Source: a virus
Lineage: Duplodnaviria; Heunggongvirae; Uroviricota; Caudoviricetes
IMG/VR virus record: IMGVR_UViG_2541047777_000002
Length of the DNA: 6,281 bases
Strand: one strand, 5' to 3'
Positions 2 through 6,135 of this stretch are shown here, piece by piece. Within the stretch, counting starts at the first letter, position 1. The number at the start of each line of letters is the position of its first letter. The notes below the pieces were generated by a model, which worked only from the letters and a program-made list of their open reading frames with translations, was not told the DNA's origin and searched no databases. A program made the translations under genes and the position numbers.

Positions 2-1303
2 GCCGCAATTGAAGCGACTGCGCGTAACGACTACGCCAGCAACATGATCTGCATCATGCACAGCGACGGTTATAAGGTATCGCCGCTGGCCACCGATTAT
101 GCTGCGAATGATATCGGTAAAGATCTGCGTAAAGAAGCGCGGGATATTGTGTGGGAACAGACACTGGATCTGCACCTCAATACAGAAACTCCACAAGAAT
201 CAGAGCGTGAAGAACTGCTAAAAAAACGCGCGCTGACGCTTGAAGAACAGGCAAAACTTGTCCGCTGGGATATTGAAAACGAACTGAAACTACCGGTTGA
301 AGAAGGCACACTGAAATTCTATTTCGATGGTGCTCGAGACAAAGTTCGCCGCTATGAAACAATGCTTTTAGATGAGGTAACAGCTCGTCGTTACGACCGG
401 GAAGAAGCAGCCATCAATTTTACCTACGCATACCGTCAGGCGGGACAGTGGCAATATTTTGTAGTGACCGCGATGACTCGCGAGCAGGCTGATGATGTCT
501 TTAAAACTAAATTCCCTGGAATAATCGATCACAAGGTAAAAGCTACTCCTACTGTTGAAGTCGGGGCTCGCGGTTTCTATGCGCTTAAATCAGCAACTCT
601 CCGGCAGTACTTTATCGACTGCGGTATCAACCCTGAGACTATGACCGGCGAGGCGACTCAGGAGCGTCTCAAATTCGCTCGAGATAATCTCATGACAGCC
701 GAACGCCGTGACCTGTTGAATAACGTTCTGCACATTGGTGGTTTTATGACGCCAAAAGGGAAGCCTAAAGTGCCGGAAGCGTTGTTTAAAAACATTTGCG
801 ACTCTCTTGGCCTTAAAACAGGTAAACGTCGCGGCAGAGACGGCGATAAGCGTCCAACCTTGCGTTTTGTTGAGCCTGAATCAGCGGCATTTATGCTGGA
901 TATTCTTGTTCAGCGTCAGAAAGATGGCCTAACCCTAAAAACGCGTAAAGCCGAGAAGACAGCCATCGAAATGGATCGCGATTTGGATCTCAATATATAT
1001 ATGGATGATAAAACGCGATCCACAAACGAGCAGGTTCAAAACGCCCCTCATTCAGTAATTTCTGAGGCTTTGGCCGTATTGCCGGTGGCTGTTCCTGAGT
1101 CCTGGGCGATGAGTGCGCTTTCCGGTGAGGAGCTGGCCACTATGTCATCATGGTCATCAACCAGCATAGCTATGACGTTTGCATCTCTGTACCTCACAGA
1201 GTTCATGGATCACTTGTCCAGCAATGAACTGCGGCGGTTACGAGAATACATTACCGGGAATAGCTCATGCAGCTACGAAGAGCAGGGCGCTTTCTATGGG
1301 TAA
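2..1303 (+). CDS. hypothetical protein, 5'-truncated at window edge (at least 433 aa of C-terminal sequence)
   Basis: Seen: the reading frame is open from base 2 with no stop until TAA 1301-1303; the track ORF 44..1303 is only the first internal ATG. Balanced, charged composition with ordinary coding appearance. No domain recognised by eye. Confidence 0.6.
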   Translation, partial: AAIEATARNDYASNMICIMHSDGYKVSPLATDYAANDIGKDLRKEARDIVWEQTLDLHLNTETPQESEREELLKKRALTLEEQAKLVRWDIENELKLPVEEGTLKFYFDGARDKVRRYETMLLDEVTARRYDREEAAINFTYAYRQAGQWQYFVVTAMTREQADDVFKTKFPGIIDHKVKATPTVEVGARGFYALKSATLRQYFIDCGINPETMTGEATQERLKFARDNLMTAERRDLLNNVLHIGGFMTPKGKPKVPEALFKNICDSLGLKTGKRRGRDGDKRPTLRFVEPESAAFMLDILVQRQKDGLTLKTRKAEKTAIEMDRDLDLNIYMDDKTRSTNEQVQNAPHSVISEALAVLPVAVPESWAMSALSGEELATMSSWSSTSIAMTFASLYLTEFMDHLSSNELRRLREYITGNSSCSYEEQGAFYG

Positions 1304-2243: not shown

Positions 2244-2531
2244 GTGAAGAGTTTTATTTTGGTTTTATGTTTTGCCTTTTCTGCTGCGGTTTATGCCCAG
2301 GAAGATAGCATTTCTGTTATTAACTCATCAGCGGAGCTTGCATGTAAAAATAATCCCGATGCTGCATCAAAAGAATCATGCAAAGAACTGCTCCTTTCGA
2401 CGGCTGCTTTTGCTTCTGAAAATGCGAAATTTTATTCAGCCTTCTGTCGCGGCTATGTTAAGGAAGAAGATAAAGAAAAATGTGATGATGCCGGTAAGTT
2501 AGTTAGGTATTTCCACTCTCTTAATCCGTAA
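2244..2531 (+). CDS. hypothetical secreted/periplasmic small Cys-containing protein, 95-aa precursor (track start 2220 is an upstream in-frame GTG)
   Basis: Seen: GTG 2244 preceded by AGGAG (2233-2237) at 6 nt; N-terminus (M)KSFILVLCFAFSAAVYA/QE looks like a Sec signal peptide with an AxA-type cleavage site; mature part has 4 Cys; no lipobox. Stop TAA 2529-2531. Confidence 0.55.
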   Translation: MKSFILVLCFAFSAAVYAQEDSISVINSSAELACKNNPDAASKESCKELLLSTAAFASENAKFYSAFCRGYVKEEDKEKCDDAGKLVRYFHSLNP

Positions 2532-2632: not shown

Positions 2633-2662
2633 TTGACGTGTGCGTCGTTTTGACGGTAAAGT
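2633..2662 (+). promoter_or_regulatory. candidate sigma70 promoter for the anti-immunity operon (TTGACG - 18 nt - TAAAGT)
   Basis: Seen: TTGACG at 2633-2638 and TAAAGT at 2657-2662. The -10 match is weak (4/6) and there is a second TTGACG at 2650-2655. Inference only. Confidence 0.25.
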
Positions 2663-2691
2663 TACTCCGCTGCGGCAAATTCCGCAGCCGG

Positions 2692-2715
2692 GCGTGAGAA
2701 CCCGGATAAACGAAG
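2692..2715 (+). promoter_or_regulatory. upstream copy of antisense-RNA target sites (a1 GTGAGAA 2694-2700; b1 AAACGAAG 2708-2715)
   Basis: Seen: both elements are exact reverse complements of two single-stranded segments of the downstream RNA (TTCTCAC 2828-2834; CTTCGTTT 2813-2820). The 10-mer GCGTGAGAAC (2692-2701) recurs at 2862-2871. Knowledge: phage P1 immI has a1/b1 upstream and a2/b2 downstream of c4. Confidence 0.5.
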
Positions 2716-2720
2716 CGCAC

Positions 2721-2743
2721 AACACGCGCCAGCGTGTTTTTTT
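2721..2743 (+). terminator. intrinsic-terminator-like hairpin (AACACGC-GCCA-GCGTGTT) followed by a T run
   Basis: Seen: 7-bp stem with 4-nt loop; seven consecutive T at 2737-2743, of which the first two pair in the stem. Lies between the a1/b1 elements and the structured RNA. The stem is short, so efficiency is uncertain. Confidence 0.5.
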
Positions 2744-2772
2744 GTGTGTATATACCTGCGCATATCCGATTT

Positions 2773-2855
2773 ATGGTGGCTCAGGCGGGGCTGACTTCGG
2801 TCAGGCCGGTTTCTTCGTTTGCCGGTATTCTCACCCCCGCTTGGGCTACCACCAT
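2773..2855 (+). ncRNA. c4: c4-type antisense (repressor) RNA of an immI-like anti-immunity locus; ends approximate
   Basis: Seen: 7-bp closing helix (ATGGTGG 2773-2779 with CCACCAT 2849-2855); inner helix GCGGGG 2785-2790 with CCCCGC 2835-2840; hairpin CTGAC-TTCG-GTCAG (2791-2804); hairpin CCGG(T)/(G)CCGG (2806-2825) whose loop carries CTTCGTTT; unpaired TATTCTCAC (2826-2834). Both single-stranded segments are complementary to short elements upstream and downstream. GC-rich, with no convincing ORF. Knowledge: this matches P1/P7 c4 and N15 CA RNA. Confidence 0.65.
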
Positions 2856-2861
2856 TCAAGA

Positions 2862-2901
2862 GCGTGAGAACTCTGGTGGTAGCACGACCAATTAAACGGA
2901 G
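2862..2901 (+). promoter_or_regulatory. downstream antisense target sites (a2 GTGAGAA 2864-2870; b2 AAACGGAG 2894-2901, overlapping the SD of the Icd-like ORF)
   Basis: Seen: a2 is identical to a1; b2 pairs with the RNA loop CUUCGUUU using one G-U wobble and contains GGAG 8 nt upstream of ATG 2910. Inference: pairing would occlude the ribosome-binding site. Confidence 0.6.
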
Positions 2902-2909
2902 TGCATACC

Positions 2910-3074
2910 ATGTTCAAATTCAAATTTGCGGCAGTCGTTCGCACAGACAAAAAGTCACACATCCATCATCTTTCCACCATCGCGTCATCTGAACGGGAAG
3001 CTCGTCGCCAGTTCGCCAGCCGGTTTGTCCTGGTATTGTCTGCCCGTATTCCGGTGCGCGAGGTGGCTGCATGA
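2910..3074 (+). CDS. icd: Icd-like small protein (putative cell-division inhibitor), 54 aa; not in the supplied ORF track
   Basis: Seen: ATG 2910 with GGAG 8 nt upstream; translation MFKFKFAAVVRTDKKSHIHHLSTIASSEREARRQFASRFVLVLSARIPVREVAA; stop TGA 3072-3074 overlaps ATG 3071 of the next ORF. Knowledge (from memory, not searched): resembles Icd-like proteins that follow c4 in P1-type immI loci. Confidence 0.6.
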   Translation: MFKFKFAAVVRTDKKSHIHHLSTIASSEREARRQFASRFVLVLSARIPVREVAA

Positions 3075-3304
3075 ATCAGGTAAAAATGAACACTGTTGGC
3101 CTGCTGGAATCGTTGGATGAACGTCTGGCTCAGGTCTATGCGCTCGTATCATCAGCCCATCGGACAGTCTCCAGCTGTGAGGCGTCGATTTATCTCTCAG
3201 AAGCAGGGAAACTCCTTCAAATTGCGTGTGAGTTAACACACGAAGCACAGGGATATTCAGCATCGCTCTCGTCGCAATTGCTGCACGGTAAGGAGGCTGA
3301 ATGA
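3071..3304 (+). CDS. hypothetical protein, 77 aa, within the antirepressor operon
   Basis: Seen: ATG 3071 with GAGGTGG (3060-3066) 4 nt upstream; ATGA overlap with the previous stop and with the next start at 3301. No recognised domain. Confidence 0.6.
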   Translation: MNQVKMNTVGLLESLDERLAQVYALVSSAHRTVSSCEASIYLSEAGKLLQIACELTHEAQGYSASLSSQLLHGKEAE

Positions 3305-4074
3305 GCGCGTTAGCAGTCTTTTCCTTTCAGGAAGAGCATCAGGTACGTGTAGTGATGATTAACGGCGATCCGTGGTTTGTGGCGAATGATATTTGCAATG
3401 CTTTAAGCATCCAGAATGTCACACAAGCTATCGCTCGATTAGATGAAGATGAGCGATCTATGTTTAACATAGGCCGTCAAGGTCAAGCCAATATCATCAG
3501 TGAATCAGGTCTTTACACGCTCATTCTCCGCTGCCGTGACGCTGTAAAACAGGGCACGACCGCGTGGCGTTTTCGTAAATGGGTAACGAACGAGGTCTTG
3601 CCCTCTATTCGCAAGAATGGAGAGTACGTTTACGTCGAGCCTGAGCCAATGCGAGCAGCAGAGCCGTTGAACTGGAGGCAGAAGGAGTATCTGCGAGGGC
3701 TGATTAACGATATTGCACAAAGTTTTCAATACCGAAATGCCTGGATTAGTGGTGTATGGTTGGCTTTGCGTCGGGCGTGTCGTAATCCATCCCCGAACCC
3801 CATAACGGTTGATGATTTGCCAGCAATTACGGCAGAACTGCGCCGGATTTTGACGGCTGCTGAGTCGGCATTGGGGAACATGCGCACGTATGAACGAGAG
3901 TTGTTGCGTGATGTTGTTCGTGGGGGTAGGCGGAGTATGTCGTGTGGTGATTTGCCCATCACCGATATTAACTCTGATCTGGAAAAGGCGTTACCCGCGC
4001 ATTTTGAACTGGCAGTTCAAAAACTTGAGCAGTTATCCGCGCAGCTAAAGCCAGCAGAAATCACCAATAAATAG
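3301..4074 (+). CDS. ant: phage antirepressor with N-terminal Bro-N-type domain, 257 aa
   Basis: Seen: ATG 3301 with strong SD TAAGGAGG (3289-3296). N-terminus FSFQEEHQVRVVMINGDPWFVANDICNALSI...GLYTLILRCR...FRKWVTNEVLPSIRKNGEY matches the Bro-N / antirepressor pattern (FxF, DGxxWFva-Dva, GlY-li, VLPxiRk-G) as recalled. Gene order (antisense RNA, icd-like, ant) supports the call. Confidence 0.8.
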   Translation: MSALAVFSFQEEHQVRVVMINGDPWFVANDICNALSIQNVTQAIARLDEDERSMFNIGRQGQANIISESGLYTLILRCRDAVKQGTTAWRFRKWVTNEVLPSIRKNGEYVYVEPEPMRAAEPLNWRQKEYLRGLINDIAQSFQYRNAWISGVWLALRRACRNPSPNPITVDDLPAITAELRRILTAAESALGNMRTYERELLRDVVRGGRRSMSCGDLPITDINSDLEKALPAHFELAVQKLEQLSAQLKPAEITNK

Positions 4075-4245: not shown

Positions 4246-6135
4246 TTAACCGAAATATGTCAGCCATGCTAACTGCATTGCTGACATGGGGCTGTTTGCA
4301 CTGCCGGACCACGCATAATTCTGGCCATTATAATGAAACTCAACAACGTATGAGCCATCACCAATATTTCTCACCGGCTTAAATACCGGCTTAGATACAG
4401 GCGAAGAAGGTGCAGGCGGTTGCTGTTCTTCTACGCTCTCTTCCTCTTCCTCTATCTCAATTTCGTCGTCATCCAGATCGTCATCCTCTGACAATTCATC
4501 CGCCAGTTCAGGTATTGCTTCCAGTTCTTCTTCGTCAGGCATAACGATTTCTGGAGTATCTATTTTCAGTTGCCATTGTCCGTTTTCGCCAACAAATTGC
4601 CCCAGAGCATCAGCAGCAAATTCCAGGTATCGACTAATCATTGTTGGGCTAAATTTGAACGCTCTTAGAGTGCTGTTCGTGATTTTTATAGAGGGGTCCT
4701 GCTCTACCAGCTGCTTAACTGTGTTATGCAGACGAACCCCGGCATCTCCTCTGGCGAATCCAGGCATTTCGTCATCAAGCTGCTGCAATGCTTCCAGCCT
4801 GGTATTTTCGTTTCCAGTATTTGGCCTCCATGTCTTTGAGAAGTTGGCCAGCTTGAATTGCTTATAGTGTAATTGAGTGTTTTCATCGTCATGGCCTAAA
4901 ATTTCCATAAAGAAAACATCTTCATCTACGTTTTTCCAACGAGGATCTACGCGGAAAAACATTTCATACGCAATACGGGCATAAATAGCACGACTATCTT
5001 TATAAACACGGCGGTCATCTTTGAAAAATGATTTAACCCACGGGTTAAAAGCCTTTGCTAATATGGCATTAATACGTCCGTTTTCAGAGCGTGTGTCGTT
5101 ATCTCCATAACCTTTAACGACATCATCAAAATCAGATGCTGCTGGGCATGAGCGAAGTACATTTATTAAATAAACAAATGTTTTTGCTTCGCATAATGTA
5201 TATATTTTTCTGGTTATATCATCAGAAGTTCTTTTTTTAGCTTGGCCTAAAAAATCAACGGTATACTTACCAGAAACAGTAAATGTACCTTGATACATAA
5301 TCTCAATCATTCGTCTTCCTGACAATGCAGCAAGTGCAAATGCCAAAGGAGCCATACCTGAACGAGTGTTTAGATTATTTAATGTAGCAGGGCTATTTAT
5401 AATATCGTAAATAGCTTGCATATATTTAGGGTAATCAATGACCACCACGTTACGTTTCTTATTGTGCAGAACGTCCGCCCATCGTTGCTGGATAGATGCA
5501 CGTTCGGCAGGGCTTAGTTGAAGATGATAGAGAATCTCATGGTTAACTTTTAGCTGATTCAACTCCTCAAGTAATGCAGATCCTTGCTGTAGTAATTTAT
5601 ATAAATAATCGCGCTTATCTTTCCAGTTATCGCTAGTTAAATCAGAAATGGCGAATTGCCACTCTTTATATTTATTTGATAATTTCAATAACTTATTATG
5701 ACTTTTGTTATCGCCAATTCTGATATTAGATAAATCTTCTGATAGAGGGAGAATTAATTTTAATTTTGCCTGTAAAGCTGACATTCTCTGGCGAATATCG
5801 GCAGCAGGTAGAGAAAGCCATGACAATAGCTCCTCATTATATAAAGGATACTTTTCAGATAGGCGATGTATATTTTTTTCAAAGCTATGATGAAGTTTAT
5901 CATCAAACCGTTTTCTGGCCCTGCTCATATAGGCATTGAATGTGTTGGCTGTAATTCTTTTTTCTAATCCTTTCCCCCTAAACTTTCGCTTGTCATTAAA
6001 TAATGCATTTTTAAATTTTAATGCAACAGCCTTTATTTTTTTTGTTTTCTCCCCTTGAGGACGGTCAGAGTTATCTATTGACTCAACATCGCTAACAAGT
6101 GAGTTTATTAATTCACCGATTTTTACTTTGCTCAT
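4246..6135 (-). CDS. telN: protelomerase (telomere resolvase), TelN-like, 629 aa
   Basis: Seen: intact 629-aa ORF with SD AGGAGAGG upstream of ATG (minus strand). Knowledge (from memory): long stretches (N-terminus MSKVKIGELIN..., RSGMAPLAFALA, RSENGRINAILAKAFNPWVKSFF, RRVYKDSRAIYARIAYEMFF, NTQLHYKQFKLANF) match phage N15 TelN, including a tyrosine-recombinase-like catalytic region, an acidic linker and a C-terminal domain. Confidence 0.9.
   Translation of the reverse strand: MSKVKIGELINSLVSDVESIDNSDRPQGEKTKKIKAVALKFKNALFNDKRKFRGKGLEKRITANTFNAYMSRARKRFDDKLHHSFEKNIHRLSEKYPLYNEELLSWLSLPAADIRQRMSALQAKLKLILPLSEDLSNIRIGDNKSHNKLLKLSNKYKEWQFAISDLTSDNWKDKRDYLYKLLQQGSALLEELNQLKVNHEILYHLQLSPAERASIQQRWADVLHNKKRNVVVIDYPKYMQAIYDIINSPATLNNLNTRSGMAPLAFALAALSGRRMIEIMYQGTFTVSGKYTVDFLGQAKKRTSDDITRKIYTLCEAKTFVYLINVLRSCPAASDFDDVVKGYGDNDTRSENGRINAILAKAFNPWVKSFFKDDRRVYKDSRAIYARIAYEMFFRVDPRWKNVDEDVFFMEILGHDDENTQLHYKQFKLANFSKTWRPNTGNENTRLEALQQLDDEMPGFARGDAGVRLHNTVKQLVEQDPSIKITNSTLRAFKFSPTMISRYLEFAADALGQFVGENGQWQLKIDTPEIVMPDEEELEAIPELADELSEDDDLDDDEIEIEEEEESVEEQQPPAPSSPVSKPVFKPVRNIGDGSYVVEFHYNGQNYAWSGSANSPMSAMQLAWLTYFG

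Follow-up and report, generated by a model that had tools for sequence, protein, structure and literature searches.

The open reading frame at 2910..3074 of the window, by which we mean the whole 6,281-nt stretch of DNA analysed here, is very probably the icd gene of a secondary-immunity (immA, anti-immunity) operon carried by an N15-like linear phage-plasmid and controlled by the antisense mechanism proposed below. The 54-codon frame is a real gene under purifying selection. It is, however, a gene described before and called as a matter of routine by annotation, and its description here adds no new biology.

Genomic context

Megablast of the window returned PhiR46_1 (97%), YDC107_1 (93%) and N15 (81%, central part), and judged by its sequence the window comes from an N15-like (Ravinvirus) linear phage-plasmid, of which it covers a part. 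Its gene order is N15-like, with the 3' end of repA followed by small ORFs, a C4 RNA, three overlapping genes and a convergent protelomerase gene, and the order repA...C4-icd-antA-antB-telN is common to the window and N15. The order and orthology of icd, antA and antB, together with the adjoining protelomerase gene, place the operon with the N15-type immA operons (megablast, record tables, PHROG and Pfam); the operon shows synteny with those of N15 and P1. The protein-coding features and overlapping frames referred to in the text are as follows.

44..1303: replication gene (repA), 3' end
2910..3074, plus strand: icd, gene for a 54-aa Icd-like protein (NF033153, phrog_1743, N15 identity, pN/pS, PGAP CDS)
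2926..3120, plus strand: overlapping ORF of 64 aa with a TTG start (ORF listing)
2985..3263, minus strand: overlapping ORF of 92 aa (ORF listing)
3071..3304, plus strand: antA-like gene, 77 aa (phrog_6301, E 2.4e-36; phrog_10889 'anti-repressor')
3301..4074, plus strand: antB-like gene of the Bro-N antirepressor family, 257 aa (Pfam Bro-N, 74.7 bits; phrog_130 'anti-repressor Ant', E 1.7e-45)
4246..6135, minus strand: protelomerase gene, convergent

The immA operons of N15 and phiKO2 encode Icd (inhibitor of cell division), AntA and AntB (PMC4488713, PMC10612081). The antA-like product of the window has matches in N15 (gene 31) and phiKO2 (gp28, 'similar to N15 AntA'), as does the antB-like product (N15 gene 30, phiKO2 gp27). 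Elsewhere in the window, 2244..2531 (plus strand) encodes a protein of 95 aa whose N terminus, MKSFILVLCFAFSAAVYAQ, resembles a signal peptide; the PhiR46_1 record gives this product the label 'Spackle exclusion protein', to be regarded as tentative, and its sole match was PHROG 26765 (function not assigned), with no Pfam family matched.

The icd reading frame and its conservation

The icd frame runs for 54 codons from the ATG at 2910 to the TGA at 3072-3074, with the translation MFKFKFAAVVRTDKKSHIHHLSTIASSEREARRQFASRFVLVLSARIPVREVAA, and an in-frame TAG at 2880-2882 closes it upstream. The initial annotation had credited this ORF with a proper Shine-Dalgarno sequence and with an ATGA overlap with the next gene, and both are present: GGAG lies at 2898-2901, 8 nt 5' of the ATG, and the stop overlaps the ATG of the 77-aa ORF 3071..3304 within GCATGA (3069-3074). 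It had also supposed that the ORF fell under the size cut-off of the ORF track, which is correct, as the listing starts the frame at GTG 2901 and the resulting 57-aa form is below the default cut-off of 60 aa.

Conservation was assessed across 11 N15-like phages (the window, N15, PhiR46_1, YDC107_1, phiKO2, PY54, KpLi5, NAR688, MStein-2023a, 020009 and 48ST307), with Kpn74 left out because of a frameshift in its record. The 54-codon frame is open in all 11, with a conserved ATG and GGAG or GAG 8-9 nt upstream; variable alignment columns number 18, 18 and 47 at codon positions 1, 2 and 3, respectively, and the pooled pN/pS of the icd frame is 0.18. More widely, the frame is intact in 40 of 42 loci with a C4 pattern upstream (41 IMG/VR loci and the window), and 19 columns are invariant among 24 Icd homologues. 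The overlap of icd with antA is kept as ATGA or GTGA in all relatives and is also found in P1, and antA and antB in turn overlap in an ATGA at 3301.

In Kpn74 (locus L010, 1301..1461), the icd frame is broken by a frameshift after codon 14, which reflects either a sequencing error or a pseudogene, and the record has minus-strand ORFs annotated across the C4-icd region.

An Icd-like protein

By profile search, the 54-aa protein belongs to the Icd-like family. Its comparison with Icd-like families, a check put forward in the initial annotation, gave a full-length match to the NCBIfam model NF033153 (phage_ICD_like), with a score of 67 bits (cut-off 25; E 1.1e-18) and residues 2-49 aligned to positions 1-48 of a 48-position profile, and the same model matches P1 Icd (52.6 bits, E 3.4e-14), PY54 Icd (73.4 bits) and the 54-aa ORF of P4 (76.9 bits), in a family whose spread takes in P1, P4 and Pasteurella phages. 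The icd product also matched phrog_1743 (E 4.5e-20), and tblastn identities were 94% to N15, 87% to phiKO2 gp29 and 59% to PY54 Icd, all of 54 aa; the phiKO2 record describes gp29 as 'similar to inhibitor of cell division encoded by Bacteriophage N15 icd'. A BLASTP comparison of the 54-aa product with P1 Icd, the one member, N15 aside, that has been studied biochemically, gave no alignment, and the relation to P1 Icd is at the profile level only, through one profile. A Pfam match to LtuB was sub-threshold (18 bits against a cut-off of 25) and was taken as noise.

A PDB sequence search with the 54-aa protein found nothing at E values up to 10, and a large protein search returned 35 close relatives (59-98% identity), which do not suffice for a deep alignment. 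An AlphaFold2 model built with 24 close homologues was moderately confident (pLDDT 73.8) and has a beta-beta-alpha-beta order, with predicted strands at residues 2-13, 18-25 and 39-47 and a helix at 28-34; Foldseek with this model against the PDB found no significant neighbour (best E 0.88). The last five residues are probably constrained by the antA Shine-Dalgarno sequence, since they lie outside the family profile and overlap that signal (GAGG, 3060-3063, within the last icd codons).

Extrapolating from experiments on P1 and N15, the most likely effect of the 54-aa product is a reversible block of host cell division: icd of P1 is reported to have this effect (PMC8201110, PMC5944126), and the N15 product is described in reviews as a cell division inhibitor (PMC4488713).

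Leader, antisense RNA and target sites

The region upstream of icd contains the following RNA features and candidate signals.

2633..2662, plus strand: sigma-70-like promoter TTGACG-18-TAAAGT, candidate operon promoter (Pa of N15; consensus scan, 9/12)
2656..2742, plus strand: leader with the upstream C4 target sites a1 and b1 and a terminator (Rfam, terminator scan)
2694-2700, plus strand: a1, GUGAGAA
2708-2715, plus strand: b1, AAACGAAG
2721-2738, plus strand: terminator hairpin, followed by a U run (terminator scan)
2769..2856, plus strand: C4/CA-type antisense RNA gene (Rfam RF01695)
2813-2820, plus strand: b', CUUCGUUU, hairpin-2 loop of the C4 RNA
2828-2834, plus strand: a', UUCUCAC, single-stranded segment of the C4 RNA
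2864-2870, plus strand: target a2, GUGAGAA, complementary to a' and forming the loop region of a small AGAG...CUCU hairpin
2894-2901, plus strand: target b2, AAACGGAG, complementary to b' with one G-U pair and containing the icd GGAG

The C4 RNA gene matches RF01695 over the whole model (82.2 bits against a gathering threshold of 45, E 1.3e-15, positions 1-87 of 87), and a C4 RNA was found at the matching place in 13 of the related phage loci scanned. Upstream of it, the leader matches both c4-a1b1 (RF03163, 48.8 bits, 2656-2708) and isrK (RF01394, 68.1 bits, 2669-2742). The isrK model describes an Hfq-binding sRNA of Salmonella Gifsy-1, and its match overlaps that of c4-a1b1 in the window; the two appear to be models of one element, consisting of the a1/b1 hairpins and the terminator. 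The operon promoter at 2633..2662 is a candidate on grounds of position only, and promoter-like sequences in the region are no commoner than in shuffles.

Both recognition segments of the C4 RNA have two potential targets, a' being complementary to a2 and a1 and b' to b2 and b1. Across 13 phages including P1, a' and b' covary with a2 and b2 (a2 with a' across 5-6 variants, and b2 with the loop variants), and the cognate duplexes average -9.1 (a) and -10.4 (b) kcal/mol compared with -4.5 and -6.4 kcal/mol for non-cognate pairs. Among distinct IMG/VR leaders, the cognate a helix has at least 7 bp in 27 of 27, a length reached by 1.7% of non-cognate pairs, and the b helix ends 8-13 nt before the ATG in 27 of 27; in several b variants the contiguous helix ends 5 nt short of the GGAG. 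These patterns are strong comparative evidence that the ribosome-binding region of icd is the regulated site, and the comparative pattern of both pairings gives independent support for ATG 2910 as the start codon.

A pairing of ACUCCG (2664-2669) with the Shine-Dalgarno region, present in the minimum-energy fold, was set aside, as by eye it is not conserved in relatives. Just 3' of a2, GGUGGUAGC (2875-2883) is conserved in all N15-like leaders and shows full complementarity to GCUACCACC (2845-2853), the 3' strand of the stem that closes C4; the minimum-energy fold of the unprocessed transcript pairs these two segments, and this pairing may be an alternative structure relevant to RNA processing. 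One IMG/VR locus (L037, IMGVR_UViG_2571042784_000001) has a second C4-like RNA in tandem, about 330 nt upstream of the regular C4 RNA; this copy has different loop and J segments and lies 5' of the normal leader-C4-icd module.

Proposed control of the operon

In the mechanism that we propose, the operon would be transcribed rightwards from a promoter near 2633-2662 to give, in order, the a1/b1 leader with its terminator, the C4/CA RNA, a2, b2, icd, antA and antB, and the C4/CA antisense RNA would be processed out of this transcript. In a lysogen, the C4/CA RNA would pair through a' with a2 and through the hairpin-2 loop segment b' with b2, and the b2 pairing would cover the icd Shine-Dalgarno sequence, blocking icd translation; antA and antB would also be silent, because of their translational coupling to icd and because an untranslated leader would be prone to premature termination. 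Where the C4/CA RNA is titrated or absent, icd would be translated, ribosomes would continue into antA and antB, and the antirepressor would then counteract the prophage repressor.

The translation block and the coupling are modelled on P1 and on the isrK-orf45-anrP locus of Gifsy-1, in which translational coupling of a small ORF to an antirepressor gene has been shown experimentally (PMC4825925); the conserved ATGA overlaps suggest that ribosomes translating icd feed antA and antB. As the entry of the antirepressor operon, icd would make its ribosome-binding site the switch point of secondary immunity. The C4/CA RNA of this lineage may act mainly by blocking initiation, as in the P1 model, or by bringing about premature termination, as in the P4 model; in a 1999 study of N15, Ravin and colleagues reportedly described the CA RNA as ending transcription prematurely, in the manner of P4, and not as blocking translation alone.

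Alternative interpretations

An alternative interpretation is that icd is a coupling or leader ORF only, the translation of which opens antA and antB while the peptide itself has no function. Such a role would fit the ATGA overlap, the position of the antA Shine-Dalgarno sequence inside the last icd codons, the orf45-anrP coupling in Gifsy-1 (PMC4825925) and the need for icd in ant expression in P1 (PMC8201110; P1 record notes, where icd is 'apparently required for expression of ant'), but we consider it improbable because purifying selection acts on the amino acids (pN/pS 0.18, 19 invariant residues), the family is conserved from P1 through P4 to Pasteurella phages, and division inhibition has been reported for the P1 product and attributed in descriptions to that of N15 (PMC8201110, PMC4488713). 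Moreover, PY54 has an intact icd behind its C4 RNA without an ORF of at least 30 aa starting at the overlap.

The remaining interpretations concern which frame is the gene, and we find neither credible. On one reading, either 2926..3120 (plus strand) or 2985..3263 (minus strand), both of which are longer, is the genuine gene and the 54-aa frame is incidental; but pN/pS is 2.45 for the former, whose TTG start is missing from 7 of 10 relatives and whose frame is interrupted by stops in 5 of 10, and 1.81 for the latter, which has a stop in 8 of 10, and the products of both had no match in Pfam, PHROG or NCBIfam. The comparative data already refute this reading: with pN/pS above 1.8, frames broken in relatives and no family match, the two ORFs are artefacts, as the initial annotation had thought probable, and conservation across relatives, which it had named as a check, favours the 54-aa frame and neither of the overlapping ones. 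It is just as hard to accept a longer protein, a 'secondary immunity repressor' with its start within the C4 region, the form found in the annotation of N15 gene 32 (96 aa), YDC107_1 (66 aa) and the P4 'cI' ORF (137 aa) and echoed by the PHROG label 'transcriptional repressor' on phrog_1743 and phrog_6928. The TAG at 2880-2882 closes this frame in the window, its upstream part is the C4 RNA gene, and among relatives the length of the upstream translation varies from 14 to more than 80 codons, with frameshifts caused by loop indels; the Icd profile begins at residue 2 of the 54-aa form, and the sole conserved start is ATG 2910 with its Shine-Dalgarno sequence 8-9 nt upstream. The 'transcriptional repressor' or 'secondary immunity repressor' label on N15 gp32, the P4 cI ORF and phrog_1743 is a historical misannotation. 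Our preferred reading remains that of an icd gene of 54 codons, starting at ATG 2910 and encoding a functional Icd-like protein.

Annotation of the locus in public records

The expectation in the initial annotation that pipelines would miscall this locus was borne out in part. Plasmid CP088379.1 is 100% identical over 2760..3310 and carries a PGAP CDS with the exact bounds of icd ('host cell division inhibitor Icd-like protein'), PGAP makes the Icd-like call as the exact 165-nt CDS in 18 of 18 E. coli RefSeq records holding the region, and the PhiR46_1 record also calls a 165-nt CDS. Compared without gaps over the whole window, CP088379.1 agrees at 4886 of 6281 positions, so it differs from the window, or has indels, outside the identical stretch. 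Other records are wrong: RefSeq gene 32 of N15, the 96-aa 'transcriptional repressor', fuses a translated RNA gene to icd, the P4 record has its analogous 'cI' ORF, YDC107_1 has an N-extended call, and Kpn74 (PHANOTATE) and 48ST307 have no icd call. The lesson for annotation is that a 54-codon regulatory or toxic gene can fall under ORF-length cut-offs while shadowed by two longer, spurious ORFs.

In plasmids of identical or related sequence, PGAP also places an 'ash family protein' CDS at 2773..2895 (plus strand), where it covers the C4 RNA gene. Its translation matches Pfam PF10554 (Phage_ASH) with 37.5 bits against a cut-off of 26, and in 14 relatives the frame is between 14 and more than 80 codons long, shifted by 1-nt indels in the RNA loop; on this comparison, the CDS seems to be the translation of an RNA gene and not a member of a true protein family. 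The ash frame of N15 and P4 continues into icd, and this accounts for the long 'cA' and 'cI' ORFs of older annotation.

Reassortment of C4 recognition segments

Among 50 loci, 5-6 variants of the a segment and about 7 of the b segment occur in 18 combinations. Between the window and PhiR46_1, 97% identical, a1, a' and a2 alone have changed, and in a coordinated manner (GUGAGAA/UUCUCAC in the window, UUCGCAA/UUGCGAA in PhiR46_1), which predicts different secondary-immunity specificities for the two. We raise as a tentative idea, towards which we are slightly sceptical, that the a and b recognition modules reassort independently and form a two-key code if repression needs both contacts. If true, this code would determine which pairs of phage-plasmids, whether co-resident or superinfecting, can shut down one another's icd-ant operon. 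P1/P7 heteroimmunity is a known precedent, and for the N15-like group we found no description of a reassorting two-segment C4 code in the literature.

Comparison with known systems

The closest counterparts are the icd genes of N15, phiKO2 and PY54, which, as in the window, lie behind a CA/C4 RNA, are coupled by ATGA to antA and then antB, and are flanked by repA and protelomerase genes. The C4 recognition segments of N15 are UUGAGAA (a') and CUUCUUGUA (b'), compared with UUCUCAC and CUUCGUUU in the window, so the immA specificities of the two are predicted to differ; in addition, the N-extended 96-aa ORF of the N15 RefSeq record is impossible in the window because of the TAG at 2880.

The P1 record lists c4, a2, b2 ('repression of icd ant translation'), icd and ant1 in this order, with a 4-nt overlap between the last two. 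The immI locus of P1 (c4-icd-ant1/2) shares with the window the NF033153 match, a b2 site over the ribosome-binding site and the 4-nt overlap, and the C4-to-ATG spacing is 53 nt in the window and 47 nt in P1. However, P1 Icd has 73 aa rather than 54, the downstream antirepressor is Ant1/Ant2 in P1 and AntA with a Bro-N AntB in the window, and the P1 promoter is under C1 control. The P1-like placement proposed in the initial annotation is right as to the arrangement, with C4, a2, b2 over the ribosome-binding site, icd and an ATGA leading into an antirepressor gene, but the operon is of the N15 immA type and not a P1 locus.

P4 resembles the window in that a C4-family RNA is followed directly by the gene for a 54-aa Icd-like protein (50% identity), which overlaps the gene after it; this ORF, between the CI RNA and epsilon, we take to be P4 kil. 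Unlike in the window, the downstream genes of P4 are epsilon, orf151 and alpha, which are not antirepressor genes of the AntA/AntB type, and the P4 RNA is described as acting by premature transcription termination via seqA and seqC (PMC4825925). Gifsy-1 has in common with the window an isrK-type leader element and a small ORF coupled to an antirepressor gene (PMC4825925), but in Gifsy-1 the short leader RNA activates translation in trans.
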